A stretch of DNA of 64,000 nt from Gemmatimonadales bacterium. GTDB lineage: Bacteria; Gemmatimonadota; Gemmatimonadetes; Gemmatimonadales; GWC2-71-9. Under the pieces are notes generated by a model, which searched no databases, was not told where the DNA came from, and worked only from the letters and a program-made list of their open reading frames with translations. The stretch spans positions 7,061-71,060 of the forward strand of contig DATIWD010000025.1 in NCBI GenBank assembly GCA_035519565.1, given 5' to 3'. Numbering within the stretch: position 1 is the stretch's first letter; each line of letters starts with the position of its first letter. Positions 15,160-32,497 of the stretch are shown here, one piece after another. Position numbers and translations under genes: made by a program.

Positions 15160-15167
15160 TGAGGGGC

Positions 15168-15213
15168 AGGACTGAGGGATGAGGACTGAGGCTCAGTCCT
15201 GAGTCCTGAGTTC
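15168..15213. repeat. inverted heptamer arrays forming a palindrome (AGGACTG units / CTGAGTC units)
   Basis: aggactg-agggatg-aggactg-agg | ctcagtc-ctgagtc-ctgagtt. The core aggactgagGctcagtcct is a 19-nt palindrome sitting 9 nt upstream of the tRNA-Ile 5' end. Confidence 0.7.
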
Positions 15214-15272
15214 CGTGTCCGCCCCTACCGCCTTTACCGCCCTGCCCGCCTTGTCCGCCCCCGACCGCCCGA
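15212..15272. repeat. 9-nt periodic array R1 (C-rich on + strand)
   Basis: tccgtgtcc gcccctacc gcctttacc gccctgccc gccttgtcc gcccccgacc. It lies between the acidic ORF and the tRNA. Confidence 0.6.
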
Positions 15273-15306
15273 CACGATACCCACGCCCTCCCCCATCTGG
15301 CAACAG

Positions 15307-15579
15307 CTACCGCCGCTTGCGGCGCGGCTCGTCGCCCTCCAGCTCCTCGATGTCCTCGTCCCAACCCTCCTCGTCCTCCTCCTTGTCCTCCTCGTCCAAG
15401 TCCTCGTCCTCGTTCTCGTCGAGGTCGTCCTCGTCCTCTTCGTCGAACGTGAAGCCCTCATCGTCCTCGTCGAAGTCATCATCATCCCGCCGCCGACGCA
15501 TTTCGATGGCTTCCCGCGACGCTTCCCACGCCGACATGATCTCCTCCGGCTCGAGTAAAGGTGAACGGTGGAAACGCAT
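15307..15579 (-). CDS. small poly-acidic protein (90 aa) with basic C-terminal tail
   Basis: The ATG at 15579 is preceded by AAGGGAGG, about 10 nt upstream and overlapping the typA stop. Sequence: MRFHRSPLLEPEEIMSAWEASREAIEMRRRR + a 53-aa segment with 39 D/E + PRRKRR. GC3-rich codons. No family recognised. Confidence 0.5.
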   Translation of the reverse strand: MRFHRSPLLEPEEIMSAWEASREAIEMRRRRDDDDFDEDDEGFTFDEEDEDDLDENEDEDLDEEDKEEDEEGWDEDIEELEGDEPRRKRR

Positions 15580-15595
15580 GGTCGCGCGACCTCCC

Positions 15596-17458
15596 TTACG
15601 ACGCACCCGCGGCCCGAGCCGCCGCCCGTGCCGCCTTCTTCCGATCAGACGCCGCCAGCGCCCGCTTGCGAAGCCGGATCGTCTTGGGCGTCACCTCGAT
15701 CAGCTCATCCTCTTCGATGTACTCCAGCGCATACTCCAGGGTGATCTCCCGAGGCGGCTCCAGCTGCACGTTCTCGTCCGATCCGCTGGCCCGCATGTTG
15801 GTCAGCTTCTTCTCCTTGGTGACGTTCACGTCCATGTCCCCGGGCCGGGAGTTCTCCCCGGCGATCATCCCCTCGTAGACCAGCTCCCCGGGGGCCACGA
15901 ACATCTGGGCCCGCTCCTGCAGGTTCCCCAGCGCATAGGCCACCACCACACCCTGCCGGTCCGCCACCAGCACCCCCCGCTTCCGACCCGCCAGCGGTCC
16001 CGCCCAGGGACCGTAGTCGAGGAACCGGTGATGCATCACCCCAGTGCCCCGGGTGTCGGTCAGGAACTCGGAACGGTAGCCGAAGAGACCGCGGGCCGGG
16101 ATCCGGAACGACATACGGACCATCCCCTGCCCCGGGTTCTTCATCTCCATCAGCTCGCTCCGCCGAGGACCCAGCTTCTCGATCACGGTGCCCAGGTGCT
16201 CCTCCGGCACGTCGATCATCAGCTCCTCGTAGGGCTCGAGCCGCTCGCCACCGGGACCCACCCGGGTGATCACCCGCGGGCGGGAGACCTGGAACTCGTA
16301 CCCCTCGCGCCGCATGGTCTCCATCAGGATCCCCAGGTGCAGCTCGCCGCGACCCGAGACCGACCAGGTGTCGGGGCTCTCGGTGTCCTCGACTCGAAGG
16401 GCCACATTCCGTTCCAGCTCGTTGTACAACCGGTCCCGCACCTGGCGGCTGGTGACGAACCGGCCTTCCCGTCCCGAGAAGGGGCTGTTGTTGACCATGA
16501 AATCCACCGAGATGGTCGGCTCTTCGACCGCGATCCCGGCCAGCCGCTCGGGCACCGCCGCGGCGGTGATGGTCTTCCCGATCTCGATCCCCTCGAGACC
16601 CGAGAGGACGATGATCTCGCCGGCTTCCGCACGCTCCAGCTCGACCCGGTTGAGCCCCTCGAAGCAGTAGAGCTTGGTGATCTTGCTCCGCTCGATCGCC
16701 TCGTCGGTCACCAGCCCGGGCTCCCCCAGAGGCAGCAGCGCCACCTCGTCTCCCACCTCGACTCGGCCCCGCTCGATCCGCCCGATCGCCATTCGTCCCA
16801 CATAACTCGAGTAGTCGAGCGTTGAGACCAGCATCTGGAACGGACCTTGGGGGTCCCCCTTGGGCGGCGGGACGTGGTCCAGGATGGCCTGGAATAAGGG
16901 CTTGAGGTCGGTCCCCGGGTGTTCCAACTCCGCAGTGGCAGTCCCGGCCCGGCTCGACGTATAAAGGAATGGGGCGTCCAGCTGCTCGTGGGAGGCCTCG
17001 AGATCGATAAAGAGGCCCAGCACTTCATCATGGACCCGGAGGGGCTCGGCGTCGGACCGGTCGATCTTGTTGATCGCCACGATGGGGCGTAGCCCCAAAC
17101 TCAGGGCCTTCCGGGTCACGAACCGGGTCTGCGGCATCGGCCCTTCCGCCGCGTCCACCAGGATCAGGACCCCATCCACCATGCGCAGGATCCGCTCGAC
17201 CTCACCGCCGAAGTCGGCGTGGCCCGGCGTGTCCACGATGTTGATCTTGACCCCGCCCCAGCGAACCGAGGTGTTCTTGGCCAGGATAGTGATCCCCCGC
17301 TCCCGCTCGAGCGGATTGGAATCCATCACCCGTTCCTCGACCTGCTGGTTGGCCCGGAACGCGCCCGCCTGACGCAGCATCTGATCCACCAGGGTGGTCT
17401 TCCCGTGGTCGACGTGCGCGATGATCGCGATGTTCCGGATGGCTTCCTGGCTCTTCAT
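15596..17458 (-). CDS. typA: translational GTPase TypA/BipA
   Basis: Track ORF 15596..17521 trimmed to [25 protein letters not shown] (ATG at 17458). G motifs ([20 protein letters not shown]) and a BipA-type C-terminal region. Confidence 0.92.
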
Positions 17459-17474
17459 CTGCGTCCCCAAACCT

Positions 17475-18092
17475 TCACTCTCTGGGGGCGAACACGCTCT
17501 CACCCCCCTCTCGCGCGGCATATATAGGCGAGTGGGTGGGAACCGGCAAGTGGGACAAGACGGACAAGACGGACAGGGTGGACAGGTGAACGAAGGACAG
17601 GAGGGACAGGACGGGCAAGACGGACAGGTGGCCTAGCCCACGTCCCCAGAACAACACCAGCCTGAGCGTCTTGACGGATCCCCTCCGGTCCTGCGTGAGC
17701 ACCTTGTTTGACCTTCCGTCTTGTCGGTCTTTGCCGCCCTGCCCGTCTCTCAATGACCGATACAGCAGCCACGTTAGCCTCCCGGCATTGGCGCGCAGGG
17801 ACTCCAGCCGCCCGTATTCCAGCGAATCCACCATCCTGAGATCGCGGGCGAGTTCGAGGGCGGAAGACAATTCGGACGACCCATTGCTGATGTCCAGATA
17901 CCGCCTGAATTCCGCCCGCCCCGGCTTCGCGGGGCCTTCCGCGATACGAGCCGAGGCAGAGTACGCAGCCTTCCGTACCTGCGCTGCCAACCCGTAACGC
18001 TCGGTCCGGGGCCAGTAGTTGGTGGCCTTGTACACCTCGACCGCCAACTCGTGGCAGGCTTTCCAGGCGAGCAGCTTCTGATACGGCATCAT
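17475..18092 (-). CDS. four-helix-bundle protein (23S rRNA intervening-sequence protein / Avd family) with repeat-encoded C-terminal extension
   Basis: The first 118 or so aa (MMPYQKLLAWKACHELAVEVYKATNYWPRTERYGLAAQVRKAAYSASARIAEG..EFRRYLDISNGSSELSSALELARDL) match the family pattern as I remember it. The last 85 or so aa (GKDRQDGRS...LSVLPVLSLLSFVHLSTLSVLSVLS) are read straight through the 9-nt repeat arrays. The stop lies 17 nt before the typA ATG. Confidence 0.7.
   Translation of the reverse strand: MMPYQKLLAWKACHELAVEVYKATNYWPRTERYGLAAQVRKAAYSASARIAEGPAKPGRAEFRRYLDISNGSSELSSALELARDLRMVDSLEYGRLESLRANAGRLTWLLYRSLRDGQGGKDRQDGRSNKVLTQDRRGSVKTLRLVLFWGRGLGHLSVLPVLSLLSFVHLSTLSVLSVLSHLPVPTHSPIYAAREGGESVFAPRE
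17553..17630. repeat. 9-nt periodic array R2 (G-rich on + strand)
   Basis: ggacaagac ggacaagac ggacagggt ggacaggtg [aacgaa] ggacaggag ggacaggac gggcaagac ggacaggtg. That is 4 + 4 units separated by 6 nt. Confidence 0.8.
17711..17750. repeat. 9-nt periodic array R3 (C-rich on + strand, inverted relative to R2)
   Basis: accttcc gtcttgtcg gtctttgcc gccctgccc gtctct. It lies about 80 nt from R2 in the opposite orientation. Confidence 0.65.
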
Positions 18093-18185
18093 GCAGGGAA
18101 GATCAACCGGATGCCCACTGAACCATCATCGGCCTAATGCAGATTGGTACGGAATTGCGCCAAGGGAATAACCGCTAGGAGGGCT

Positions 18186-18257
18186 CTCTTGTCCAACCTG
18201 TCCGTCTTGTCCGCCCTCTCCGTCCTGTCCGTCTTGCCCGCCCTGTCCGTCTTGACC
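18186..18257. repeat. 9-nt periodic array R4 (C-rich on + strand), 8 units
   Basis: ctcttgtcc aacctgtcc gtcttgtcc gccctctcc gtcctgtcc gtcttgccc gccctgtcc gtcttgacc. It lies between the four-helix-bundle gene start and the CDF gene stop. Confidence 0.85.
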
Positions 18258-18262
18258 AACTC

Positions 18263-19294
18263 CTAATGGTGGTGTCCTAACCCAAGGTGAACATGGTCAT
18301 GCCTGTCCGTCTTGTCCGTCTTGCCCTCCCCGACCGCCGCGTCCTCCTCGCACGGCCCCCCGGTCTCCAACTGTATGGTCACATGCCCGATCCCCAGTCG
18401 AGCCAGCGCGGCACGGATCTCCTGTAGGACGCCCGGGTGGGCGTCGAGGTTGGGAACCACGGCATGCCCGCTCATCGCGACAATACCGCTGGTCACGGTC
18501 CAGACGTGGAGATCGTGGACCGCGGAGACGCCCGGGACTTCCATCATCAGTCGCTGGACTTCGGACATGGACACGTGCGCCGGGGCGGCCTCGAGCAGGA
18601 TATCGGTGCTCTCCCGCAGCAACCGCCAGGCGCCGACCAGAATCAGGAGGGCGATGCCAATCGAGATGATCGGGTCTGCCGGCGTCCATCCAGTGAACAG
18701 GATCACCAACGCCGCCACGATTGCCCCGGCCGAGCCCAGGACATCGCCCAGGATGTGGAGGTAGGCGGCGCGCGTGTTGAGGCTCCTCTTGTGATGGTCT
18801 CGGAGCAGGAAAAGGCTGCCCAGGTTCACCAGCAGGCCCGCAGTGGCCACCGCGAGAAAGAGTCCGGTCTTGATCGTGGGCGGCTGTCCCAAGCGCTCAA
18901 CCGCTTCAAAGACCACCCACCCCGCGATGCCGAACAGGCTGGCCCCGTTCACCAAGGCTGCGAGGATCTCCCACCGCAGGTACCCGTAGGTCTTCGAGGG
19001 ATCGGCCGGCCGTTGCGCGATCCAGGCAGTAAGCAGCGTGAGCCCCAGCGCCCCCACGTCGGTGAGCATGTGGCCGGCATCGGCTAGCAGGGCCAGCGAC
19101 CCGCTCACCAGTCCACCCACCACCTCGATGACCATGAACCCGGCGGTGAGCAGCAGCACGAAGCGCAGCCGTTTCAGCGCTCCCGACCGACTGAAGGACG
19201 CCTCCGAGGTCGAGGGTCCCGCGTGCGCCGCGACTGCGCGGCAGGGGTCCAGCTCGGCTGCCTCACCGGCGCGACCCGGGTTGCCGGCCGTCAT
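18263..19294 (-). CDS. cation diffusion facilitator family transporter (CzcD/ZitB-like)
   Basis: 343 aa with six TM helices. Motifs SLALLADAGHMLTD and AYLHILGD, a cytoplasmic C-terminal domain (HDLHVWTV) and a His-rich tail. The residues GEGKTDKTDRH near the C-terminus are encoded by repeat array R5. Confidence 0.85.
   Translation of the reverse strand: MTAGNPGRAGEAAELDPCRAVAAHAGPSTSEASFSRSGALKRLRFVLLLTAGFMVIEVVGGLVSGSLALLADAGHMLTDVGALGLTLLTAWIAQRPADPSKTYGYLRWEILAALVNGASLFGIAGWVVFEAVERLGQPPTIKTGLFLAVATAGLLVNLGSLFLLRDHHKRSLNTRAAYLHILGDVLGSAGAIVAALVILFTGWTPADPIISIGIALLILVGAWRLLRESTDILLEAAPAHVSMSEVQRLMMEVPGVSAVHDLHVWTVTSGIVAMSGHAVVPNLDAHPGVLQEIRAALARLGIGHVTIQLETGGPCEEDAAVGEGKTDKTDRHDHVHLGLGHHH
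18300..18335. repeat. 9-nt periodic array R5 (C-rich on + strand) inside the CDF gene 3' end
   Basis: tgcctgtcc gtcttgtcc gtcttgccc tccccgacc. Confidence 0.7.
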
Positions 19295-19310
19295 GAGTCC
19301 CTCATCCTGC

Positions 19311-20591
19311 TCACTTCTCCTTCATTCGCACTCGAATCGCCTCGGCGTGCCCCATCAGCCCTTCCGCCTCCGCCAGGACGATCACGTGGTCGGCATCGTT
19401 CAACAAGCGCGAGCGGTTATATCCAATGATGCTGGTCCGCTTCACGAAGTCGTACACCCCGAGCGGGCTGGCGTAGCGCGCGGTGCCCCGGGTTGGGAGA
19501 ACGTGGCTGGGGCCGGCCAGGTAGTCACCCACCGGCTCCGGGGAACTGTCTCCCAGAAAGATCGCGCCGGCGTGCCGGATTTCCTCGGAGATCCCCTCGG
19601 GATCCCGGACCAGCAGCTCCAGGTGCTCCGGGGCCCTGCGATTGATCACCGCCACTCCATCCTGAAGACTCGGCACCCAGACCAGGAGGCCGGAACGCTG
19701 GAGCGCCGCGCGAGCCACGGCCGCGCGAGGGGCCTTGGCCAGGGCGTCCTCGAGTGCCGCGGGCAAGGCATCGGCGATCCGGGTATCGGTGGTGATGCAC
19801 CAGGCCACCGCGTCTTCGTCATGCTCCGCCTGGGCCACCAGGTCGGCGGCGATCTTCTGGGGATCGGCGGTCGCGTCGGCCAGGATGACCAGCTCGGTGG
19901 GGCCCGCGATCATATCAATGCCCACGTCTCCCGCCACCTGCCGCTTGGCCTCCGCGACCCAGCGGTTTCCCGGTCCCACGATCTTGTCCACGCGAGGCAC
20001 GGTGGCGGTGCCGTACGCCAGGGCACCGATCGCCTGCGCGCCCCCAACCCGGAACAACCGAGTGACCCCGCCCAGGGCGCAGGCGGCAAGCACCGCATCC
20101 ATGGCGCCGGTGGGCGGAGTGACCGCGATGATCTCGGAGACTCCGGCTACCACCGCGGGGACCACGTTCATGATCACGGTGGACGGATAGCAGGCCTTGC
20201 CACCCGGCACGTACAGGCCCACGCGCTCCAGGGGGGTAACCCGCATTCCCAGGATGCTCCCGTCTTCCTGAAGCAGTCGGAAGCCCTGGTCACGCTGCCG
20301 GACGTGATAATCGGTGACCCGGGTGATGGCGGTCTCGAGCGCGTTGCGGAGGGTCAGGTTGATCCGGTCCAACGCCTCATGCCACACCGACTTGGGGACT
20401 TCCCATTCCTCGGGCGCCAGCTCGATGCCGTCAAACCGGCGGGTGGCATCCCGCACCGCGGCGTCGCCGCGACTGCGCACGTCGGCCAGCAGCGCGGCCA
20501 CCACGGTGCGGGTCTCCGCATCGGTCTCGACCAGTCGCGGGAGAAAGGGGTTGAGCCGCTCCATCGGCGGCACGGTGATCTGACGGATCAT
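19311..20591 (-). CDS. hisD: histidinol dehydrogenase
   Basis: Track ORF 19311..20849 trimmed to MIRQITVPP (ATG at 20591), giving 426 aa. HisD motifs present (YVPGGKACYPSTV, QAEHDEDA, NRSRLLNDADH region). Confidence 0.9.
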   Translation of the reverse strand: MIRQITVPPMERLNPFLPRLVETDAETRTVVAALLADVRSRGDAAVRDATRRFDGIELAPEEWEVPKSVWHEALDRINLTLRNALETAITRVTDYHVRQRDQGFRLLQEDGSILGMRVTPLERVGLYVPGGKACYPSTVIMNVVPAVVAGVSEIIAVTPPTGAMDAVLAACALGGVTRLFRVGGAQAIGALAYGTATVPRVDKIVGPGNRWVAEAKRQVAGDVGIDMIAGPTELVILADATADPQKIAADLVAQAEHDEDAVAWCITTDTRIADALPAALEDALAKAPRAAVARAALQRSGLLVWVPSLQDGVAVINRRAPEHLELLVRDPEGISEEIRHAGAIFLGDSSPEPVGDYLAGPSHVLPTRGTARYASPLGVYDFVKRTSIIGYNRSRLLNDADHVIVLAEAEGLMGHAEAIRVRMKEK

Positions 20592-20643
20592 CGACTTGGC
20601 CCGCCCTCCCGGGACCCCGCCTGGGCGGCTAGTCTTACCGGGT

Positions 20644-21948
20644 ATGTCCACATCGGTGGGCCTCCTGTCGGTGGCGGGCCTGGTCCTGGCCAACGCCTTC
20701 TTCGTCGCCGCGGAATTCTCCCTGGTCGCCACCCGCAAGACGCGGCTGGAGGCGATGATCCAGCAGGGGGATCGCAAAGCTATCCTCGCCCGTCGGGCAG
20801 TACAATCGCTGACCCGCTTCATCTCCGTGACCCAGTTGGGGATCACCATGACCTCCCTGGGTCTGGGCTGGATCGGCGAGCCGGCCCTGGCCGACCTGAT
20901 CGGCGGCGCCTTTGCCTTTCTGCCTTCTCCGTTTCATCTGGTTGCCACCCACGCCGTAGCCGGAGTCATCGCGTTCACCGCGATCACTTTCCTTCACATC
21001 ATCCTGGGCGAGCTGGTGCCCAAGGCCATCGCCCTGGCGTACCCGGAGACGATCCTGGGTTGGACCGCCGGACCCCTGATGGGATTCCGTTGGCTCATGG
21101 CCGGCCCAACCGCGTTGCTGTTCGGGGTCGCCAGGCAGCTCCTCACCTGGATGGGCGTCAAGCCGCCCGAGCATCATGAGCGACTCCATTCGCCCGAAGA
21201 GATCCGTCTGTTGGTGGAGCAGAGCGAAGAGGGCGGGAGCCTGGAGCAAGCCGACGCCCGATTGCTGGCCGGCGTCTTCGAGTTCAGCGAGAAGAATGCC
21301 ATGGAGGTGATGACGCCCCGCACCCAGGTCGAGGCGCTGGCCGCCGATCTCACGGTCGAGCAGGCGGCAGACGAAGTGGTGCGTGCGCGTCGCTCCCGCT
21401 ACCCGGTCTTCCGCGAGAGCCTGGATGACATCGTAGGCGTCGTGCACGCGAAGGAAATTCTGGCCGCCTTGCGCTCCAAGCCCGGTACCACGGTGGCCAC
21501 CTTGATGCGGCCCCCGCTCTTCGTCCCCGGCACTCGGGAAGTGGAAGACGTGCTGGCCGACATGAAGCGACTCAAGGTCCACATGGCCGTGGTGCTCGAC
21601 GAGTACGGCGGGACCGCGGGGCTGGTCACCATGGAGGACCTGCTGGAAGAGATCGTAGGCGAAATCCTCGACGAGTACGATCAGGCCGCGCCGGCGGCCC
21701 CTCCTCTGGAAGGGGCGCCACTCCTGGACGGCAGCATGCCGATTTCGGACCTCAACGCCGAGTATGACTTGTCGCTCGATGACCGGGAGTACACCACGCT
21801 GGGTGGCTACATCTTCGGCCAGCTGGGACGCTTGCCCCGGGCTGGCGATCGGGTCACCGTAGCGGGAGACACCTTTGAAGTCGTGGAGATGGAAGGCAAG
21901 CGGGTGAAATCGGTTCGCTTCCTCCAGGGCGCGGCTGGAAAGACCTGA
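20644..21948 (+). CDS. hemolysin-family / CNNM (DUF21)-CBS-CorC_HlyC domain protein
   Basis: Trimmed to MSTSVGLLSVAGLVLANAFFVAAEFSLV (ATG at 20644). DUF21 TM domain, a CBS pair (VMTPRTQV, RYPVF) and a CorC/HlyC C-terminal domain. Confidence 0.85.
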   Translation: MSTSVGLLSVAGLVLANAFFVAAEFSLVATRKTRLEAMIQQGDRKAILARRAVQSLTRFISVTQLGITMTSLGLGWIGEPALADLIGGAFAFLPSPFHLVATHAVAGVIAFTAITFLHIILGELVPKAIALAYPETILGWTAGPLMGFRWLMAGPTALLFGVARQLLTWMGVKPPEHHERLHSPEEIRLLVEQSEEGGSLEQADARLLAGVFEFSEKNAMEVMTPRTQVEALAADLTVEQAADEVVRARRSRYPVFRESLDDIVGVVHAKEILAALRSKPGTTVATLMRPPLFVPGTREVEDVLADMKRLKVHMAVVLDEYGGTAGLVTMEDLLEEIVGEILDEYDQAAPAAPPLEGAPLLDGSMPISDLNAEYDLSLDDREYTTLGGYIFGQLGRLPRAGDRVTVAGDTFEVVEMEGKRVKSVRFLQGAAGKT

Positions 21949-22041
21949 GCCGGAGCCTTCCGGCACGCTCTTCGTTCGACCCTTCCCCGTTCGTGGCGCG
22001 CCGCTTACCGCTCACCGCCGGCGCCGTTAGTTTGCTCGCCC

Positions 22042-23001: not shown

Positions 23002-23630
23002 CCACCCAGCTCCGCATCGCGCTCCCGAAGGGGCGGCTCTACGATCCGACCCTCGAACGATTCAAGCGGGCGGGGATCGCGCTGACTGGCGACCCGGGGC
23101 GGCGCCTGCTGGTGCCCGCCTCCGAGCCCGGCATCGAATTTCTCGCGGTCAAGCCGATGGACGTTCCCGTCTATGTCGAATCGGGCGCCGCTGACCTGGG
23201 CGTGACCGGCACCGATGTCCTCCGCGAGACCAATGCCGACGTGCTGGAGCCGCTCGATCTCGGGTTCGGCCACTGCCGCCTGGTGGTCGCGTCGCCGACC
23301 GGATCGCCGTATCCGGATCTGCCCGGGGGAATCACGCCCAGAGTCGCCACCAAGTATCCCCGACTGGCCTGGCAACACTTCGCCGCGGCCGGCCGGCCGG
23401 TCGAGGTCGTGACCGTGGCGGGATCGGTGGAAGTCGCCCCGCTCCTGGGGCTCTCGCACTGGATCGTGGATCTGGTGGATACGGGGAATACGCTCAGGGC
23501 CAACGATCTGGCCGAGCGGGAGGTGATTCTCGCCTGCAGTGCGATCCTGGTGGCCAACCGGGCCAGTCAGAAGCTCAAGCTCGAGCGGTTCCAACAGGTG
23601 ACCGGCCGCCTCGAGGCAGCCGGCGGGTAA
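22998..23630 (+). CDS. hisG: ATP phosphoribosyltransferase (short form)
   Basis: 210 aa (LRIALPKGRL, DVPVYVESGAADLGVTGTDVL, VDLVDTGNTLRAN). A short HisG is consistent with the presence of hisZ. Confidence 0.9.
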   Translation: MTTQLRIALPKGRLYDPTLERFKRAGIALTGDPGRRLLVPASEPGIEFLAVKPMDVPVYVESGAADLGVTGTDVLRETNADVLEPLDLGFGHCRLVVASPTGSPYPDLPGGITPRVATKYPRLAWQHFAAAGRPVEVVTVAGSVEVAPLLGLSHWIVDLVDTGNTLRANDLAEREVILACSAILVANRASQKLKLERFQQVTGRLEAAGG

Positions 23631-23639
23631 CGCCCTGGC

Positions 23640-24575: not shown

Positions 24576-24589
24576 GCGACGAGGCGTGT

Positions 24590-25924
24590 CTAGAACCCCC
24601 GGATCTCCACGTAGGAGTTCTTGCGGAGCCTGGCGACGTAATGCTGGACCGCCAGGTCCTTGCCCAACCCGGTGCGGATCTGGTCCCGCACATCCTCGTA
24701 CTTGACCTCACCCGCCGACCGGCGATTCATCAGCTTGAGGATGATGTACTTGTCGCGATAGGACACCGGACCCGGCAGTTTGAAGAGCGGGACGACCGCG
24801 CCGGAATCCAGCTGGCCGATCGCCGCCTGATACTCCGGCGGCAGCCGGTTGAGGGAGACATCGCTGGCGTCCTTGTCCAGCGTGGGGTCATTGTAGAGTC
24901 GTTGCAGCGAGTCGATCGAGGCCCCGTTCAAGACCGCGGTCCGGATGCGCTCCCCCATCGCCTGGGCGCTGTCCGCTTCGGCCTGCGTGATCTCGGGCAT
25001 GATGAGGATGTGCCGGGCCTGGATCTCGCCCGGCTGGACTCGTTGCACCTGGATCACGTGGAATCCGAAGATGGTCTCGACCGGATTGGAGACGACGCCC
25101 GGCTTGAGGTTGAAGGCGACCTGCTCGAACTGGGTCACCATCATGCCGCGCCGGAACCAGCCCAGGTCCCCGCCCTGTTCCTTGGTGGTGGGATCCTGCG
25201 AGAACCGTTTCGCCGCCGAGGCGAAATCGCCACCCTTCCGCAGCCCGCGCGCGATCGAATCGGCCAGCAGATAGGCGCGGAGCAGGGCGGCGGAGTCGGC
25301 CTTGGGCGTTACCACGATCTGCTTGATCGAGACGGTCGCCGGCCGATCGCCCAGCTCCGCCTTCCGTTCCTCGAAGGCCGCTCGCATCTCCTTATCCGTG
25401 GGAATCACCGGCTCCAGCTTGTGTTCGCCCTGAAGCTTCTCCAGGAGCCGGTTCTTGAGCGCCTCCCGCCGCTGCTGATCGCTGAGCCACCGGCGATACT
25501 CATCGGGACTGTCGAATCCGGCCTTTCGCAGCTCGCCGCGATATTCGATTTCCGAAACGAACTTGCCCCGCACGTTCTTCACCTGCTGCTCCACCCCTTC
25601 GGCCACTTCCTGGTCAGTCACCTTGATCGCGGTGTCCTGCTGAGCCTCCTGGACCAGGAGCTCGACGTCGATGATCTCGTTGAGCACCCGCCGGCAATAT
25701 GCCCGCAATGCCCCGGCGCTGTCGGGCAGCTTGATCCCCTGCTGCGCGATGCTCTGGTAGGCGGTCTCGTCGACGTACGAGGCCAGGATCGGTGCATTCC
25801 CCACCACGGCGACGACTCGGTCGATCGACTGGGCGGTATCGCAGCGCTGCTGCTGGGCCAGTCCCGGTCGGGCCACCGCGACGAGCAACGTCAGAAAGAC
25901 GAAAAGTACGAGTCGTGCCTTCAT
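24590..25924 (-). CDS. surA: periplasmic chaperone / peptidyl-prolyl isomerase SurA-like
   Basis: 444 aa. Signal peptide, SurA N-terminal-like domain (DRVVAVVGNAPILASYVD), and a parvulin domain (ARHILIMPE...FGFHVIQV). Confidence 0.8.
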   Translation of the reverse strand: MKARLVLFVFLTLLVAVARPGLAQQQRCDTAQSIDRVVAVVGNAPILASYVDETAYQSIAQQGIKLPDSAGALRAYCRRVLNEIIDVELLVQEAQQDTAIKVTDQEVAEGVEQQVKNVRGKFVSEIEYRGELRKAGFDSPDEYRRWLSDQQRREALKNRLLEKLQGEHKLEPVIPTDKEMRAAFEERKAELGDRPATVSIKQIVVTPKADSAALLRAYLLADSIARGLRKGGDFASAAKRFSQDPTTKEQGGDLGWFRRGMMVTQFEQVAFNLKPGVVSNPVETIFGFHVIQVQRVQPGEIQARHILIMPEITQAEADSAQAMGERIRTAVLNGASIDSLQRLYNDPTLDKDASDVSLNRLPPEYQAAIGQLDSGAVVPLFKLPGPVSYRDKYIILKLMNRRSAGEVKYEDVRDQIRTGLGKDLAVQHYVARLRKNSYVEIRGF

Positions 25925-27414
25925 GTCACCTTTGCTCTGGGCGCAGCGGTACTGGTGCTGTCATGTCCGGGAATCGGGGCCGGACCCGGAGCCGGTCGCA
26001 GGCCCGGTCCCGTCGGCTTCTTCGCCGCGGCGGAATCGCGCTGCTGCTTCGCCACGATGGCCGCCTTGGTAAGGGCCAGCGCGACGCCGTCCGGAAACTG
26101 ATGGTAGGGGTACCGGTCTCGCAGCACACTGATGAGCCCGCCGCCCGGAGGACGGCTCCTGGTTCCCGCGGCAATCCGATCGAGCAGGCCGTTCACCCTG
26201 CCTTCGACCCAGACCGGTTGGCGGGCCGAATCCGCATCGGCCGAACCCCCGATTCTGAGCGCCTGTTTCAAGCTATCCAGGTCGCCGCGGTATTGCTGAT
26301 AGATCGAGCGCCATTCCGGCTCGGTGATGCCCACCTTGGCCGAATCCGCCTGTTGAAGAACCAGTTTGGTCTGCGCCAGCCCCTTGACGAATCGCATGAT
26401 CTCGAAGTCGCGCATCCGATCGAAGCGGGTCACCACCAGGGGGCCCACGGCCTGGATGAAGTTGATCAGCTCACGCTCGGTGTAGGCCCCACCCTGGTAG
26501 ATCGCCAGGGGCCGATTCGACTTGAGCGCGTGCTCCCGATCGTCCATGGCGTTGCGGACCAGTTGCGGCGTGTTGTAAGGAAACCTGAGCCCGTACCGGT
26601 CGCACAGATCGATGACGTAGATGGAATCCAGCCGGGGGCGCTCGCGTTCGGTCAAGTAGGCCATCCACTTGGCGCGGACCTCGGTGAGCGGAGGCCGCCG
26701 GATGATGTGGAATCCGGCCCGGCTCTCGACCACCCCACTGTGCTGGCCCGGTGCCAGAGTCCAGGCGACACTGTCGAACTTGGCCGTAAAGGTGCCACGC
26801 ACCGCTGGAGGCATCACCCCCTTGGCGGCCCGACCCACGGTGTCGTCCGAGTACCTCATGGCCAGCTCGCCGAAGTCAGCGCCGGCATCCAGGCGGGCCA
26901 GGAGGCGCGATGCCCTGTTCTTGGCCTCCGCGCGTTGAGGCGCGGGAGCATTGGGCGGCGCGATCACCAGAAGCTGCTGGAACACCCGTTCCCGCCCGGC
27001 GGCGTCCGCGCTATCAGCGAGCGAATCGGGGAGCACCGGCCGATGGGCGGCCAGGGTGTCGCGCCAATGGGTCAGCCGCGCCCGAACCACCTGCGGCCAC
27101 ATCGCCTGCGCGGCAGTGGCCGAGTCATCGAGCGCGGCGCCGGTCGTCACCGCCTGGGTGAACAGGCTGTAGTTGATCCAGGCATCGGCCAGCAGCTCGG
27201 CGCCCGCCTTGTTGAGGCTCACCTGTTTCCCCAGGCCCGTGAGCAGCTCGGCCAGCCGGTCAGCCGGCAGACCGGTGGGGCCGGCCGTCGCCGCCAGCGG
27301 CGGATGCGCGGTGAACATGTCGCCCGGCGCGCCACACCCGGCAAGCGTTCCCGTCGCGCACAGCGCCCAGATCGTGAGACCGCGACCTACCCGCATGCCC
27401 AGACTCCCATTCAT
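25921..27414 (-). CDS. parvulin-type peptidyl-prolyl isomerase lipoprotein (SurA/PpiD-like)
   Basis: 497 aa. Lipobox (TLAGCG) and a parvulin core (GQHSGVVESRAGFHIIRR). 4-nt overlaps with both mfd and surA. Confidence 0.7.
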   Translation of the reverse strand: MNGSLGMRVGRGLTIWALCATGTLAGCGAPGDMFTAHPPLAATAGPTGLPADRLAELLTGLGKQVSLNKAGAELLADAWINYSLFTQAVTTGAALDDSATAAQAMWPQVVRARLTHWRDTLAAHRPVLPDSLADSADAAGRERVFQQLLVIAPPNAPAPQRAEAKNRASRLLARLDAGADFGELAMRYSDDTVGRAAKGVMPPAVRGTFTAKFDSVAWTLAPGQHSGVVESRAGFHIIRRPPLTEVRAKWMAYLTERERPRLDSIYVIDLCDRYGLRFPYNTPQLVRNAMDDREHALKSNRPLAIYQGGAYTERELINFIQAVGPLVVTRFDRMRDFEIMRFVKGLAQTKLVLQQADSAKVGITEPEWRSIYQQYRGDLDSLKQALRIGGSADADSARQPVWVEGRVNGLLDRIAAGTRSRPPGGGLISVLRDRYPYHQFPDGVALALTKAAIVAKQQRDSAAAKKPTGPGLRPAPGPAPIPGHDSTSTAAPRAKVT

Positions 27415-30400
27415 TGTGAGGCCGGCGCCAGGACCGGCTCCGGGCCAACGGCCGCTCGGAGGGCACGGACCAGCGCCGGCGTCATCGGTTCCCCGCCCAG
27501 ACGGGTGAGGCGCAGGGCGAGCGGAACCGTTCGCCGAACCTCGGCCGCCAACTGCACCTCGTCCAGCGCGACCTTGAGCCCGGCCAACCGCGGCACCGCG
27601 CCGGCCCGGAAACTCAATCGCGCTTCTTCCCCGTGCACCAGCAGGTGTTGCACGCCGATCCGCGCACCCAGAATCCTGAGCCGGGAGAGATGCAGCAGGT
27701 TTTCCGCCTCGGCCGGCAAGGGGCCGAACCGTTCGCGCATCTCGTCGCGAAGCTGCTCAATGTCGCCAGGGGTGGTGGTCCGCGCCAGTCGCCGATAGAG
27801 ATCCAGCTTGACGTCGTCCTCGGAAACGTAATCGTCCGGGAGATGGGCCGGCTGGTCGAGTACCACCTCCGGCGGCGCCGGCTGTTCGCCCTCCCCCTGC
27901 CCCTTGAGCGCCCGCACGGTTTCGTCCAGCCAGCGGAGGTAGAGATCGAAGCCGACCGCCTGGGCGTGGCCCGACTGTTCCGCGCCGAGCAGATCGCCGG
28001 CGCCCCGAAGCTCCAGGTCCTTGAGCGCGATCCGGTACCCGGCGCCGAGATCGGTGTGATGCTCCAGGACCTTGAGCCGCTCCTCCGCCTCGCGATCGAT
28101 CAGATCGGGCACGAGAAGATAGCAATAGGCGCGGCGGTGGCTGCGGCCGACCCGGCCCCGCAGCTGGTACAGCTGCGCCAGGCCGAACCGGTGGGCGTCG
28201 TGCACCACCATGGTGTTGGCGTTGGCCACGTCGAGACCGGACTCGACGATCATGGTCGAGACCAGAACGTCCACCTCTCCCGCCACGAATTGCCGCATCA
28301 CCTCTTCCAGCGGCTCCGCCGGCATCTGGCCGTGCACCACGCCCACTCGGGCCCGGGGCGCCAGAGCCCGGACCCGTTCGGCGATGGTGTTGATGGTCTC
28401 GATCCGGTTGTGGACGAAAAAGGTCTGCCCTCCCCGATCCAGCTCCCGCGCCAGCGCTTCCTCGAGCAGCCCATCGTCCCACGGTTCCACAAAGGTGAGA
28501 ATCGGCGAGCGGTCCCGCGGCGGTGTCTCGATGATGGTCAGGTCCCGGAGCCCGGCCAGACTCATGTGCAGCGTCCGGGGAATGGGAGTCGCGGTCAGCG
28601 TCAGCACGTGGACCGAGAGGCGCAATGCCCTGAGCCGCTCCTTGTGTTTGACGCCGAAGCGGTGCTCCTCGTCCACCACCAGGAGACCCAGATCCTTGAA
28701 CCGGGCGTCGGGAGAGAGCAGCCGGTGGGTCCCAATCACGATATCGACCTCGCCAGCGGCCAGTCGAGCCAGCAGCGCCTTCTGCTCCCTGGGCGTCCGG
28801 AATCGCGAGAGGACTTCGATCCGGACCGGGAAATCCACCAGCCGCTCGGAGAATGTGCGCCCGTGCTGGTCGGCGAGAATGGTGGTGGGAACCAGGACTG
28901 CCACCTGCTTGCCCGCCTGGACCGCCTTGAACGCCGCCCGCACCGCGATCTCCGTCTTGCCGTAGCCCACATCTCCCACCAGCAGGCGATCCATCGGACG
29001 AGGAGCTTCGAGATCCCGCTTCACTTCTTCGGTCGCACGCCGCTGATCCGGCGTGTCCTCATAGAGGAAAGAGGACTCCAGCTCGCGCTGCCACTTGGTA
29101 TCAGGCGGAAAGGCGAACCCCGAGGCTACCTTCCGCCGCGCATAGAGGTCGAGCAGCTCGGCCGCCATGTCCTTGATCGCGCCCCGGGTCCGATCTCGAA
29201 CCCGCTGCCAGCTGGTCCCGCCCAGGCGATGGAGTCGGGGCGGCGGCCGATCGGAGCCATCCTCCGCCGCGCGATACCGCTCCAACTGGTCGAGCCGGTA
29301 CAGGGGAACGTTGAGCAGGTCGCCGCCCTCGTACTCCAGGACCGCGACCTCCAGCTTGGCCTCGCCGACCGTGATGGTCTGAATGCCCCGATAGATCCCG
29401 ATGCCATGCTCGAGGTGGACGACGAAGTCCCCCAGTGCCAGGACCCCTGTGGCCGCGGAGGGCGCCGCCTGCCGGTAGCGCCGGGGGCGCCGCAGCCGCC
29501 GAGCCCGGCGGAAGATCTCGTGGTCGGTGAGCACCCGAAGCGAGGGCAGGACGAACCCGCCGTCGAGCGAGCCCACCACCAGTTGAGCGCCGGTGGGACC
29601 CCGCGGCCCTTCATTCAGCAGCTCATCCAGCCGCTCCAGCTGCCCTTCGTTGTCGCAGAGGATGACGGTCGGCTGTCCCCCGGCGAGCAGGGTGCGCAGG
29701 CGGGGAAGATCCCGATCGACCCGCTCGGGGGGGGAGAGTCCGGCGTGCAGGTCGGCCGGCTCCTCGCCCAGCACGAGGCTCGCAAAGCCGGCGATGCGCT
29801 GCAGCCAGCCCTCGGGCTCCTCGAACAGCTCCTCGCGGGTCGGGGTGATTTCTCCGAGGCGGCGCGCGACCTCGAGGTGGTGGGCCGCCTCCTGCCAGGC
29901 CCGCGCCACCTCTTCCCGGCCCGGCCCGGGTGATTCCTGGATCAGTAGCGTTTCCGGCGGAAGCACCTCGAGCAGCGTGCGCCGCTCCGCCTGCATCTCC
30001 TCCGGCTCCTGGGGCTGACTCCGGATCGGGAGCACAGTGACTTCGTCGAGTGGCGTGAGCGACCGCTGGCTGGTGAGATCGAAGGCGCGTACCGAGGTCA
30101 GCTGGTCTCCCCACCATTCGCAGCGGGCCGGGAACGCCATGCCGAACCCATAGATATCCACGATCCCACCCCGCACACTGAACTCGGCGACTTCCGTCAC
30201 GGTCGGGACCCGTTGATAGCCCATCGCCCCCAGCTGGGCGACCGCTTCGCTCAGGGTCGGGCCGGCTCCCCGCTGCCCGGACGCCACCGCCGCCAGCCGC
30301 AGCCGCGCTCGCGAGAGCACCGCCGGAAGCTGAGTCCGCTCCATGGTCGCGCGGACAGTGGTCACCAGAAGGCGAATCCGCCCGTGGAGCAGCGCGTCCA

Positions 30401-30719
30401 GCGTCTCGACCCGCTCCCCCGCGATCTCGAGGTGGGGCTCCTCTTCCCCGAGCGATTCCCGCTGCGGATAGAGCGCCACCGCCAAGTCCGTCAACTGAGC
30501 CAGATCGCCCAGCCACCGCTCGGCGTCGGCTGGCGTCGGCGCCACCACGGTGAAGACCCGCTGCGGGAAATGTTTCGCGAGACCGCTCAGCAGGACGGCG
30601 GGGCTGGAGCCGGGGAGACCGGCGACTCGAAGCACGGTGCCGCGCGGAGGAAGGCGCTCGGCGATCGCGCGCGCAGCCGGCGTCCGCTCGAACGCGTCGA
30701 CGATGAAGGAGACGCTCAT
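27411..30719 (-). CDS. mfd: transcription-repair coupling factor Mfd
   Basis: 1102 aa. CarD-like RNAP-interacting domain (GDFVVHLEHGIGIY), DEAD/DEAH helicase motifs (GDVGYGKTE, VVDEEHRFG, TATPIPRT) and a TRCF C-terminal domain. Confidence 0.93.
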   Translation of the reverse strand: MSVSFIVDAFERTPAARAIAERLPPRGTVLRVAGLPGSSPAVLLSGLAKHFPQRVFTVVAPTPADAERWLGDLAQLTDLAVALYPQRESLGEEEPHLEIAGERVETLDALLHGRIRLLVTTVRATMERTQLPAVLSRARLRLAAVASGQRGAGPTLSEAVAQLGAMGYQRVPTVTEVAEFSVRGGIVDIYGFGMAFPARCEWWGDQLTSVRAFDLTSQRSLTPLDEVTVLPIRSQPQEPEEMQAERRTLLEVLPPETLLIQESPGPGREEVARAWQEAAHHLEVARRLGEITPTREELFEEPEGWLQRIAGFASLVLGEEPADLHAGLSPPERVDRDLPRLRTLLAGGQPTVILCDNEGQLERLDELLNEGPRGPTGAQLVVGSLDGGFVLPSLRVLTDHEIFRRARRLRRPRRYRQAAPSAATGVLALGDFVVHLEHGIGIYRGIQTITVGEAKLEVAVLEYEGGDLLNVPLYRLDQLERYRAAEDGSDRPPPRLHRLGGTSWQRVRDRTRGAIKDMAAELLDLYARRKVASGFAFPPDTKWQRELESSFLYEDTPDQRRATEEVKRDLEAPRPMDRLLVGDVGYGKTEIAVRAAFKAVQAGKQVAVLVPTTILADQHGRTFSERLVDFPVRIEVLSRFRTPREQKALLARLAAGEVDIVIGTHRLLSPDARFKDLGLLVVDEEHRFGVKHKERLRALRLSVHVLTLTATPIPRTLHMSLAGLRDLTIIETPPRDRSPILTFVEPWDDGLLEEALARELDRGGQTFFVHNRIETINTIAERVRALAPRARVGVVHGQMPAEPLEEVMRQFVAGEVDVLVSTMIVESGLDVANANTMVVHDAHRFGLAQLYQLRGRVGRSHRRAYCYLLVPDLIDREAEERLKVLEHHTDLGAGYRIALKDLELRGAGDLLGAEQSGHAQAVGFDLYLRWLDETVRALKGQGEGEQPAPPEVVLDQPAHLPDDYVSEDDVKLDLYRRLARTTTPGDIEQLRDEMRERFGPLPAEAENLLHLSRLRILGARIGVQHLLVHGEEARLSFRAGAVPRLAGLKVALDEVQLAAEVRRTVPLALRLTRLGGEPMTPALVRALRAAVGPEPVLAPASQ

Positions 30720-32497
30720 GCCCGCGAGCCTCGCCCGCTCGCGACCAGCAGCTCGACCAGCCCCAGGGTCAGGGCCAGCCAGAGCAGCGGCCCAGTCAGA
30801 TCCGCCCGGGCGCTCCCAAAGAACCCGGCAGTGGCTGCTTCGGTGGTGGAGACGATCCGGGTTCCCGGCCAGAGCCCGCGGATCTGGGAATCGGTGGCAC
30901 GCGTCAGCTCGGATTCACGGGGATCCGGATTCACCGAGAGGGCGCCCAGCGTGTCCCGGCCGGCGAGAAAGTAGTAGATCCCCGGTTCAGGAGGCCGGAA
31001 GCGGGCACCGCCTTCGACCGGCCACGTGCGATTGCCGGCGCGCACTTCCGTGGCCAGGTCCGGAACCGGCGCCGGATCGCCGGGCGCGGTTTCGACCGTA
31101 GCGACCTCGCCACGAGCCATTCGATTGACCAGCGCGTCGAGTAGTGGAATGAAGGCGGCCGAGACCGGGAGCGAGGTCCACTCCGGATCCAGCCGGCTGC
31201 CGATCAAGACCACGCGTCCGCTCCGTACGATCCAGGGCGCGCCACCCGCTGTCGCCAGCACCCCCGTACGGGCGTTCCCCACCGGTTCCAGTCCATAGCG
31301 ACGGAGCACCCGTTCGCGGCCCACCAGTTCCCCGCTGTCACTGGCCACCGCCTCCAGACTGAGGCGGCCGTAGCGCCAGGCGACTCCCCGTTCTCCCAGA
31401 CGGCGGTTGAGCACCTCGATGCCGGCGGGATCCTTGGGCGGCTCCACCACCGAGGCGTTGGGCCCCAGGAATCCGAGGGCGACCTCGCTCCCTCGACGGA
31501 AGCGACCGCCCGCCTGCAACACCTCGGCCGCTGCCAGCAGGTAGGGCTCGTCGGATGGCCACGCCACTCCGGCTACCGGCAGCACCCGAACCGCCGTCAC
31601 CCGCCGATCATCGGCCCGAACCTCGTCGGGATCCAGCTCAGCGGCGACCGGCCACCAGCCAGCTGGAACCGTCGGAGAGGAGATGCCGAGTGGAACTCCG
31701 GCACTCGCCAGCCCGCGGCGAGCCGGGCGATCGCCCACCCGAAGAGTCAGAGGAGCCGTTGCCTGGGCTGGGCCGGATACCAGGATTCGCACGGCTCCGC
31801 CATCAGTGGTCCACGGTTGATGACCCGGATCGATGCTGGTCACGCCCCAATTGGCAGGCGGGGAGCCGGAGGGGCGAACGGCCAGGACGGACAGGGCGGA
31901 CAAGGCGGGCAGGGCGGACAAGGCGGTCAACTGAAAATCCGAAACTACTACGATCTGGCCGGAGCCTCTGAGTACATCCTCTGCAGTCCGGAGGGCCTCG
32001 CCGAGGTCCATGCGGAGACTGAGAGGGGAGAGGCCCGCGACCGATTGACGCAGCGCCTCCGGCGAGCCGCGCCGAGGAATTCCATCCGCGGTGAGCAACC
32101 AGAGCGTGTCGGCCGGCGTCGCCTCGCTCAGGACTCGGCCAGCGGCCTCACGCAGCTGAGTCAGCACCGGGACGCCATCCACCACGGCTCCGCTGCTCAG
32201 GCTGTTGTCCACCACCAGGACCAGCGCGCCGGGAACATGCCCCGCCCCGAGCCGGGTATCCACATGCGGGCCTGAAGCCCCCAGCACCAGGGCCAGCACC
32301 AGCAGGGTGCGAAGAATCAGCAGGAGATAGTTCTGGACCTTGAGCCGGCGTTCGTGACGGCGGGCCGTCTCCATCAGGTACCGCACCGCTGGAAACTCGA
32401 GGGCGGGAGGCTCACGGCGGGCCAGCAGGTGGAGCAGCAGGGGAAGCCCGGCAGCCGCCAATCCGAGCAGCACCCAGGGATGCAGAAACCCGATCAC
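30716..32497 (-). CDS. BatA-like membrane protein (aerotolerance-regulator N-terminal domain)
   Basis: 593 aa. The N-terminus MIGFLHPWVLLGLAAAGLPLLLHLLARR matches the BatA_N signature. A C-terminal TM is present. It contains the in-frame 9-nt array R6, encoding LTALSALPALSALSVLAV. Confidence 0.7.
   Translation of the reverse strand: MIGFLHPWVLLGLAAAGLPLLLHLLARREPPALEFPAVRYLMETARRHERRLKVQNYLLLILRTLLVLALVLGASGPHVDTRLGAGHVPGALVLVVDNSLSSGAVVDGVPVLTQLREAAGRVLSEATPADTLWLLTADGIPRRGSPEALRQSVAGLSPLSLRMDLGEALRTAEDVLRGSGQIVVVSDFQLTALSALPALSALSVLAVRPSGSPPANWGVTSIDPGHQPWTTDGGAVRILVSGPAQATAPLTLRVGDRPARRGLASAGVPLGISSPTVPAGWWPVAAELDPDEVRADDRRVTAVRVLPVAGVAWPSDEPYLLAAAEVLQAGGRFRRGSEVALGFLGPNASVVEPPKDPAGIEVLNRRLGERGVAWRYGRLSLEAVASDSGELVGRERVLRRYGLEPVGNARTGVLATAGGAPWIVRSGRVVLIGSRLDPEWTSLPVSAAFIPLLDALVNRMARGEVATVETAPGDPAPVPDLATEVRAGNRTWPVEGGARFRPPEPGIYYFLAGRDTLGALSVNPDPRESELTRATDSQIRGLWPGTRIVSTTEAATAGFFGSARADLTGPLLWLALTLGLVELLVASGRGSRA
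31880..31933. repeat. 9-nt periodic array R6 (G-rich on + strand) inside the BatA-like CDS
   Basis: ggccaggac ggacagggc ggacaaggc gggcagggc ggacaaggc ggtcaactg. Confidence 0.8.

Follow-up and report, generated by a model that had tools for sequence, protein, structure and literature searches.

Nonamer tandem repeats of soil Gemmatimonadales and a repeat-armed cassette with a PF05635 gene between a CDF transporter gene and typA

This study concerns a family of short tandem repeats with the nonamer consensus (GGRCARGRC)n and a gene of the PF05635 family (23S rRNA intervening-sequence protein, a four-helix bundle) that lies among them. Both were found in a stretch of 64,000 nt from a Gemmatimonadales bacterium (assembly GCA_035519565.1, contig DATIWD010000025.1, positions 7,061 to 71,060), hereafter called the window, which carries six nonamer arrays, R1 to R6. 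Our best explanation, to which we assign a probability of about 0.62, is that the arrays are slippery short tandem repeats of soil Gemmatimonadales, and that the stem formed by R4 and R2 makes of the PF05635 gene an RNA-processing and insulating cassette resembling the intervening sequences (IVSs) of 23S rRNA. PF05635 genes in stem-loops with tandem-repeat arms were found here in at least three phyla, and the published IVS of Coxiella, from a fourth phylum, has the same layout. Two puzzles are tied together by this finding, namely the purpose of the 7-9-nt repeats of cyanobacteria, xanthomonads and Gemmatimonadota and the role of the widespread 23S rRNA intervening-sequence protein, and the link makes both of them testable.

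Results

A PF05635 gene between complementary repeat arms

Along the window's minus strand the gene of a cation-diffusion-facilitator (CDF) transporter, with array R5 in its 3' end, is followed by R4, the PF05635 gene, R3, a spacer of 80 nt, R2, the typA promoter and typA. Downstream of typA come a small acidic open reading frame (ORF), a promoter-like site, R1, a heptamer hairpin and tRNA-Ile (Table 1). R2 is complementary to R4 over 34-55 nt (75-88%) and is also complementary to R3. When the whole segment of 736 nt was folded, R4 and R2 formed a closing stem round the PF05635 ORF (-351 vs -311 kcal/mol; z = -5.9, 20 shuffles), and the portion from R3 through the spacer to R2 reached -110.6 kcal/mol vs -90.9 for shuffles (z = -4.25). 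The predicted structure is a single stem-loop composed of R4, R2 and the inner R3, with the PF05635 gene in the loop and R5 just outside R4, 42 nt past its outer end. Because the stem follows the CDF stop codon, precedes the typA promoter and holds a PF05635-family gene in its loop, the locus is an IVS-like cassette outside rRNA. An Rfam search of positions 14500-18600 at E <= 1 returned tRNA only and no rRNA match. Among the roles that the original prediction had suggested for the arrays were footprints of the four-helix-bundle cassette and sites of RNA structure or processing. The former link is supported, and the latter is now the best-supported role, with processing proposed by analogy.

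The PF05635 ORF has 205 codons. Its Pfam domain comprises residues 6-100 (2.5e-22), and its best match in the PDB is 2GSC (9e-15). The last ~90 codons are an unconserved read-through across R3 and R2, as homologues typically have 116-135 aa and the protein of the sister species L205 has an unrelated tail and ends after 154 aa (L numbers denote fetched loci). What had been taken for a protein tail is thus ORF read-through. Codons 1-113, by contrast, are under purifying selection, as judged from a Ka/Ks of 0.11 against L205. Since in most relatives the CDF gene is directly followed by typA, with no PF05635 gene between them, the gene represents an insertion in this lineage. L127 likewise has a PF05635 gene in the CDF-typA spacer, in the opposite orientation and again beside a G-rich arm.

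Including the window, seven independent PF05635 loci of Gemmatimonadota lie between complementary tandem-repeat arms (27-91 nt, 72-100% complementary); at an eighth, L127, one arm is visible and the contig ends. The arms are built from different units: GGACAAGAC in the window and in L205 (arm match of 37 nt, 92%, in L205), GGGCAGGGC in L056 (69 nt, 84%), AGGCGTTG in L119 (53 nt, 89%), GGGCRRGAT in L206 (82-91 nt, 82-89%), GGCGGGAGA in L207 (27 nt, 100%), CAGGGCGAG in the L211 group (28 nt, 93%) and a GGGTCAGTG-like unit in the L216 group (35 nt, 83%). Only one of ~300 other called genes is similarly enclosed. A tblastn search of plasmids located the PF05635 family in Nostoc, Calothrix, Aulosira, Geminocystis, Stanieria, Pseudanabaena and Azospirillum. 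At nine of the 14 plasmid loci (Cyanobacteria, Azospirillum), or about six of nine when homologous loci are counted once, the ORF is bracketed by abutting complementary arms of tandem heptamers (26-46 nt, 80-94% complementary) whose units include TCAGGAG, AAAGGGA, AGGGTGT, GGGAGTA, CAGAGGG and GGACGGA/GGACAGA. A hidden Markov model search of all fetched loci yielded no PF05635 genes beyond those already found. No sign of recent transposition of the gene was seen, an identical protein (P0228, P0212) always occurring in one genomic context. A literature search of limited reach found no work that ties PF05635 genes to tandem-repeat arms in general.

The single other enclosed gene encodes a Uma2-family protein (PF05685, putative restriction endonuclease) in L206 (gene at 849-1406) and lies between the inverted tandem 8-mers (GAAGACGG)n and (TCCCGTCT)n (L206:789-1662). 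Contigs with a PF05635 gene are often short (0.5-2 kb; e.g. L217-L221), and several of them begin inside the upstream arm, at ~160 nt upstream of the gene, a sign that short-read assemblies may break at the repeat arms. The cassette of two independent Gemmatimonadales loci lies directly upstream of a gene for a translational GTPase (typA here, 15596-17461; an EF-G paralogue at L216:2086-3459), a neighbourhood that may be coincidence. In Pseudanabaena (L234) the PF05635 gene is located between cas6 and cas4.

The arrays and their surroundings in the window

The six arrays that had been claimed for the window are all present, and the translations across them read as originally given. They occupy only ~4 spacers and two genes, and their commonest units are GGACAAGAC and GGACAGGAC. 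With as many as three mismatches allowed, a pattern of two units matched 25 times in the window vs 1.53 matches expected; none of 100 shuffles gave so many. The proposal that the arrays form one related family is supported. Tandem Repeats Finder (TRF) recovered R1, R2, R4, R5 and R6, whereas R3, which is too degenerate, was not reported. R1-R5 recur in six independently assembled contigs from other soil samples with 99.9-100% identity, no indels and one single-nucleotide polymorphism (position 15263 in R1, contig L003). The possibility of an assembly artefact, raised in the original prediction, is thereby ruled out. The window comes from an uncultured bacterium of soil, whose BatA-like and four-helix-bundle proteins have named relatives in metagenome-assembled genomes (MAGs) of Gemmatimonadales.

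Table 1. Features of the CDF-typA locus, its tRNA-Ile neighbourhood and the BatA-like gene. Positions refer to the window; for arrays the strand is that of the G-rich sequence.
Feature	Position	Strand	Description
Terminator	15035-15075	-	canonical intrinsic terminator (AGCCCGC...GCGGGCT, then T-run), 3' of tRNA-Ile
tRNA-Ile (GAT)	15086-15159	-	
Heptamer hairpin	15161-15211		(AGGACTG)n facing (CAGTCCT)n, between R1 and tRNA-Ile; 20-nt arms, 80% complementary, 1 nt apart
R1	15212-15272	-	degenerate, 3-6 units (GGTCGGGGC GGACAAGGC GGGCAGGGC GGTAAAGGC GGTAGGGGC GGACACGG); 5' leader of tRNA-Ile
Promoter-like site	15274-15303	-	TTGCCA-18-TATCGT, upstream of R1 and tRNA-Ile; consensus match only
Small acidic ORF	15307-15606	-	99 aa, extremely acidic (D/E-rich), 3' of typA; no Pfam/NCBIfam match; position kept in L124, L125, L130
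typA/bipA	15596-17461	-	translational GTPase; relatives 82-96% identical
PF05635/TIGR02436 ORF	17475-18092	-	23S rRNA intervening-sequence protein, four-helix bundle; real domain ~18092-17754
typA promoter	17520-17549	-	TTGCCG-17 nt-TATATAT, abuts outer end of R2; TTGCGG-N17-TATATAT in L124-L130
R2	17553-17630	+	two 4-unit modules, each ending in GGACAGGTG, with 6 nt (AACGAA) between; 3' arm, C-rich in transcript; upstream of typA -35 box
R3	17711-17750	-	~4 units, degenerate; directly after four-helix-bundle domain; inner hairpin with inner R2 module
R4	18186-18257	-	8 units; 5' arm, G-rich in transcript; starts 6 nt past CDF stop codon
CDF transporter gene	18263-19294	-	hisD-CDF-typA order conserved in relatives
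R5	18300-18335	-	3-4 units, in frame within CDF gene; encodes GEGKTDKTDRH between dimerisation domain and conserved His-rich C-terminus
R6	31880-31933	+	5-6 units, in frame in BatA/VWA gene (30716-32497, -); encodes LTALSALPALSALSVLAV in linker after VWA domain

The heptamer hairpin between R1 and tRNA-Ile represents a sister of the nonamer arrays with period 7. In the relative L125 the tRNA-Ile leader is ~13 nt long and free of arrays between promoter and tRNA. Comparison of filled and empty tRNA-Ile leaders revealed no target-site duplication; given this and lengths that vary by unit, the arrays do not belong to the miniature inverted-repeat transposable elements. Since a canonical terminator follows tRNA-Ile, ordinary terminators coexist with the repeat hairpins; a scan for consensus terminators detected nothing at the arrays. 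Elsewhere in the window, a short tandem repeat without inverted partner (TCTCAAGTCACAAA x2, or GTCACAA x4.7) is located at 14887-14919, just past an alpha/beta-hydrolase gene, and a near-perfect 17-nt inverted repeat (AAGAGGCCGGTTCGCCC / GGGCGAGCCGGCCTCTT, 2-nt loop) at 61460-61495 resembles an ordinary hairpin terminator.

Distribution and polarity in Gemmatimonadales

The nonamers had been regarded as a genome-specific family. A scan with a three-unit pattern, restricted to one genome per species, gave at least 117 loci, and among the matches listed the same arrays are found in at least ~28 loci of Gemmatimonadales/Gemmatimonadota MAGs, which contradicts that view. Matches in Streptomyces, Kitasatospora, Myxococcales and other groups, mostly solitary and without polarity, were treated as an unrelated phenomenon. 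The arrays of the Gemmatimonadales loci lie close to gene ends, frequently as inverted pairs. TRF detected 57 arrays of period 7, 36 of period 8 and 44 of period 9, with many different units, in the window plus 28 Gemmatimonadales loci (242 kb). An array was located within 100 nt of 12 of the 15 tRNA genes in array loci, in most cases within ~10 nt. Work on tandem repeats of this sort in Gemmatimonadota or Gemmatimonas was not found in a literature search of limited reach.

Inverted pairs have a marked polarity. Among the matches listed, 17 of 38 Gemmatimonadales nonamer arrays have an inverted partner with the G-rich arm first and two of 38 one with the C-rich arm first, as compared to 7 G-first and 6 C-first cases among 93 arrays of other phyla. 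Of the inverted pairs reported by TRF, 28 are G-first and four C-first, the clear C-first cases (L207, L211) being arms of neighbouring hairpins. In Gemmatimonadales the purine- or G-rich arm is thus typically the first one. A possible reason for this order is that a C-rich arm, if it were the first to emerge, would lay open a site for Rho loading.

In ~20 of 43 nonamer arrays from different MAGs, the last unit towards the loop is one and the same variant, GGRCARGT(G/T/A); examples are 17580-17588 and 17622-17630 of the window, L056, L070 and L104. This shared terminal unit hints at something beyond local slippage alone, be it common descent or a functional end. Fixed outer ends were not seen among the arrays compared across MAGs.

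Variation of the arrays

The arrays change by whole units. R2 is longer by one unit (+9 nt) in strain L204, whose identity to the window is 99.6%. In the sister species L205, with 83% DNA identity in hisD-CDF, arrays occupy the same places, with four units in R4 vs eight here, two in R5 vs three, and ~7 in R2. The C-rich arm beside one 100% identical PF05635 protein has 3, 9, 11 or 21 units in different samples. The suspicion that the arrays are prone to slippage is supported.

Orthologous CDF-typA spacers contain inverted pairs of other units, namely the 8-mers GGACGGTG in L125 and GGGAGTCG in L126 and the 9-mer GACGGGAAG in L127 and L128. A few bases lie between the end of each pair and the conserved typA promoter downstream, and several units have a GACGG core in common with the unit of the window. 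The two arms of these spacer hairpins apparently co-evolve, as shown by complementarity that is kept despite different unit families. In the array-free L124 a single CCGTCTTGC overlaps the -35 box of typA and is a plausible local seed of arrays. At another site, an orthologous spacer has a hairpin of the CAGGGCGAG type in L211 (2209-2319) and one of the GACGGGAAG type in L215 (2177-2279) while the flanks are 97% identical; this comparison indicates either cassette-like replacement or very fast turnover.

Arrays inside genes

Frame neutrality, originally viewed as a special property of the arrays, is largely trivial as it follows automatically from the 9-nt (three-codon) period. These genomes contain sister arrays of period 7 and of period 8 just as commonly. 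GGACAAGAC, GGACAGGGC and their complements are free of stop codons whichever of the six frames is read and, together with the period, this causes any ORF that abuts an array to run through it. A GC3-based gene caller was unreliable for deciding between coding and non-coding status, as stop-free arrays over-extend ORFs; comparison with homologues was used instead. Of the three arrays that had been reported as translated within genes, those in the CDF tail (R5) and in the BatA-like linker (R6) indeed sit in frame in real genes, whereas the one in the four-helix-bundle tail does not.

CDF proteins of relatives end 14-20 aa past CEE, with His-rich tails and no array. R5 of L205 has two units (PDRADRH) in place of three, followed by an identical HDHVHLGLGHHH ending with the frame kept. 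R6 is located 13.5 kb away from the CDF-typA locus. Orthologues of the BatA-like protein (55-64% identity) have 594 aa vs 593 aa here and the sequence ...SDLQASALSAA...PLLV.RP at the array site, where A-L-S, encoded by GCC-CTG-TCC, corresponds to one C-rich unit. Three sister species (84-91% identity) have the same (GCCYTGTCC)n array in the BatA gene, with indels exactly at that spot. Given the near-equal lengths and the A-L-S motif already present at the site, R6 grew in place and is not an inserted element. The same observations speak against a likeness to Rickettsia palindromic elements (RPEs), which the original prediction had drawn, and the tandem-unit variation in the DNA of the sister species likewise sets the arrays apart from them.

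Nonamer arrays in other genes code for the hydrophobic core of signal peptides (MTIGVALSALSVLSVPSVLSAQAAASAVA; MSFPRRSK(VLS/VLP)13 in a DM13-domain protein) or the C-terminal tail of an EamA transporter. Every real coding case uses the frame that yields A/V-L-S where the C-rich strand is the sense strand, or D-K/R-T/A where the G-rich strand is. For genome annotation this means that a stop-free 9-nt repeat silently extends ORFs, the four-helix-bundle protein of 205 aa being an example, and that repeat DNA can pose as signal peptides and protein tails.

Discussion

We propose the following model. In soil Gemmatimonadales, non-coding spacers, at gene ends and next to tRNA genes, abound in arrays of period 7, 8 and 9, typically inverted pairs with the purine arm first, which would form long imperfect hairpins. 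Replication slippage, the putative mutational process, would add or remove whole units; arm-to-arm correction may keep the arms of a hairpin complementary while the unit sequence drifts, and one unit family probably spreads among neighbouring arrays. Copies of the stop-free three-codon unit that arise in genes or creep into them might persist as harmless low-complexity peptide, with A/V-L-S strings in signal peptides and linkers and D-K/R-T/A strings in C-terminal tails. At the CDF-typA locus, the transcribed R4:R2 stem would act as a double-stranded RNA processing and insulating element. An RNase III-type enzyme would cut it and so free the RNA of the cassette from the messages of CDF and typA. 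R1, in the tRNA leader, and R6, in the protein linker, are solitary copies of the same repeat family. Processing by an RNase III-type enzyme is proposed here because the Coxiella 23S IVS, which has the same layout, is cut by RNase III.

Several points weigh against this model. RNase III cleavage at the CDF-typA locus is postulated purely by analogy. Arrays are found in all types of spacers (in 48% of convergent, 30% of co-directional and 26% of divergent ones, in a small sample with crude gene calls), so that there is no clean terminator-like signature. The stems have no U-tract after them, and a canonical terminator is present after tRNA-Ile. Since arms can be very unequal (4 vs 21 units) and many arrays stand alone, much of the repeated sequence has nothing to pair with and may have expanded neutrally. 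Moreover, the loci of the census were picked for containing arrays, which inflates the densities. Five of the 14 plasmid PF05635 loci are without a complete pair of arms (four have none, L234 has the upstream array only), and several of the positive ones are homologous; with homologous loci counted once, the figure is about six of nine. Finally, the PF05635 gene of L204 (SRR12953104) shows a 2-nt deletion (L204:3290-3310, corresponding to window position ~17790), which is either a decay or frameshift allele or an assembly error.

Some of these points would also be expected if the arrays were purely neutral mini-microsatellites generated by slippage in GC-rich spacer hairpins, and if the PF05635 gene had landed in a spacer that already held such a hairpin. 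Freely varying unit numbers, unequal arms and arrays in every spacer type fit this idea, as do the ORF-less hairpins of relatives at the same CDF-typA site and the local seed CCGTCTTGC at the -35 box of L124. We consider it unlikely in view of the enclosure of PF05635 genes by abutting complementary arms at 7/7 fully visible Gemmatimonadota loci and 9/14 loci in other phyla, as compared to 1/~300 other genes. Neutral slippage is also hard to reconcile with arms that stay complementary through complete unit turnover and with a strongly one-sided polarity.

It is tempting to extend the proposed cassette model to other phyla. PF05635 (S23p/Avd-like) might be the protein component of cross-phylum hairpin cassettes with tandem-repeat arms. 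The 23S IVSs would then be a special case, and the STRR, GGGAATC and nonamer arrays would be ORF-less derivatives or products of such cassettes, just as REPINs relate to RAYTs. If true, PF05635 genes would be more than passengers in repeat-armed hairpins; we rate this generalization as rather improbable.

A related scenario, which appears still less probable to us, attributes the spread of the repeats to an activity like that of REP/RAYT systems. The four-helix-bundle protein or a partner enzyme would recognise its own flanking arms and disperse them, and solitary arrays and ORF-less hairpins would be non-autonomous offspring. The gene is indeed flanked by inverted copies of a family that is also dispersed nearby (R1, R5, R6), and the common loop-side end unit GGRCARGTG/T/A in ~20/43 arrays as well as the replacement of a CAGGGCGAG hairpin by a GACGGGAAG hairpin between flanks that are 97% identical point the same way. 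Furthermore, the heptamer-rich lineages Nostoc and Xanthomonas also carry the PF05635 family, and one Xanthomonas array abuts the PF05635-type gene XCC0516. On the other hand, the protein, a small helical bundle, lacks a catalytic motif, the nearby genes scanned include neither a transposase nor a reverse transcriptase, and no target-site duplication emerged from the comparison of filled and empty site. The GACGG core common to orthologous arrays fits evolution in place, and many unit families occur in loci that have no PF05635 gene in the fetched stretch.

It is very unlikely that the arrays act as regulatory elements that form G-quadruplexes, a role put forward for the GGGNATC heptamers of Xanthomonas and Nostoc. 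Although relatives carry (GGGCAGGGC)n, a canonical G3 quadruplex motif, and although G-rich strand asymmetry, position near gene ends and the four-unit modules of R2 recall those heptamers (PMC4692102), GGACAAGAC and GGACAGGAC have only GG runs with loops of 7 nt, and four-unit arrays are not preferred in the set examined. In addition, inverted pairing would compete with quadruplex folding, and copies in the C-rich sense are translated. Contingency tracts that switch neighbouring genes on and off in a phase-variable manner, also suggested in the original prediction, can practically be dismissed despite the unit-number polymorphism between strains, as a 9-nt unit is unable to shift the reading frame, R2 is located upstream of the typA -35 box and not in the spacer between the -35 and -10 hexamers, the associated genes (typA, tRNA, CDF) are housekeeping genes, and arrays are identical in six populations.

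Comparison with known systems

The cassette proposed here shares with REP/REPIN-RAYT systems dispersed extragenic inverted doublets that form hairpins and one protein gene flanked by inverted copies. It differs in that its arms are tandem arrays of variable length instead of a fixed palindrome of 20-40 nt with a GTAG/CGTC tag, and in that the flanked gene encodes a PF05635 four-helix bundle and not a Y1 transposase; no transposase domain was present in the scanned genes. Membership in this class is thus rejected. RPEs are discrete palindromic inserts of ~100-150 bp which add a new peptide segment to proteins. Like the arrays, they exemplify repeat sequence that is tolerated in frame in protein genes, but the coding arrays described here are three-codon tandem expansions, and orthologues have similar residues and nearly equal length. 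The tandem repeats of Borgs, which create disordered regions in proteins (PMC9879509), likewise evolve fast, occur between and within genes, and in the latter case keep the frame and encode low-complexity peptide. Their units are locus-specific and not one dispersed family, and they are not known to form inverted hairpin arms.

The closest counterpart of the arrays as such is the class of G-rich short repeats represented by the heptamers of Xanthomonas and Nostoc and the STRR heptamers of cyanobacteria. Xanthomonas campestris has 186 GGGAATC heptamer arrays, and Nostoc has similar ones (GGGGAYT); they are mostly intergenic and near the upstream gene, they form 70-75 convergent inverted pairs in plus-then-minus order, and the number of units varies between close species (Rehm et al. 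2015, PMC4692102). These heptamers form quadruplexes in vitro, and their function is not known (PMC4692102). Common to this class and the nonamers are head-to-tail short units that are G-rich on one strand, many dispersed copies that are mainly non-coding and near gene ends (with a density that is overestimated here because loci were chosen for arrays), convergent inverted pairs capable of forming stem-loops with the G-rich array first, and unit numbers that differ between close relatives. By contrast, the arrays of this study belong to the phylum Gemmatimonadota and have a period of 9, which makes them frame-neutral and, with a stop-free unit, able to persist in genes. They are not heptamers with four or more G3 tracts, as the units of the window mostly have GG runs and are poor quadruplex formers. 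According to a table of the Xanthomonas study, array #15 falls on the XCC0516 start codon (PMC4692102); XCC0516 is the S23p homologue with the structure 2GSC and hence the best PDB match of the PF05635 protein of the window. A link to PF05635 is unreported in that study despite this array.

The cassette has its best parallel in the 23S IVSs of Coxiella, Leptospira and Brucella. The Coxiella IVS is 428 nt long; a terminal stem of 28 bp closes the loop that holds its S23p ORF, and RNase III excises the element (Warrier et al. 2016, PMC4990558). Its 5' region contains two or three tandem GACAGAT heptamers, depending on the strain, with a cleavage site at the first repeat, and ORF-less IVSs occur in other genera (PMC4990558). 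IVSs and the present cassette thus have in common a stem of paired complementary termini with a PF05635 ORF in its loop, a size of ~0.45-0.6 kb, a 5' arm of tandem short purine-rich repeats whose number varies by strain, and the existence of ORF-less versions. They differ in location, the cassette being placed between CDF gene and typA promoter and not in helix 9, 25 or 45 of 23S rRNA, and in their arms, which consist of ~70 nt of nonamers here as compared to the 28-bp stem in Coxiella. Moreover, the ORF described here is under purifying selection (Ka/Ks 0.11) while that of Coxiella is decaying. Excision by RNase III has been demonstrated in Coxiella only. Taken together, the finding belongs both to the kind of the G-rich 7-9-nt repeats and to that of the IVSs, and its added value is the link between these two unexplained genome features.

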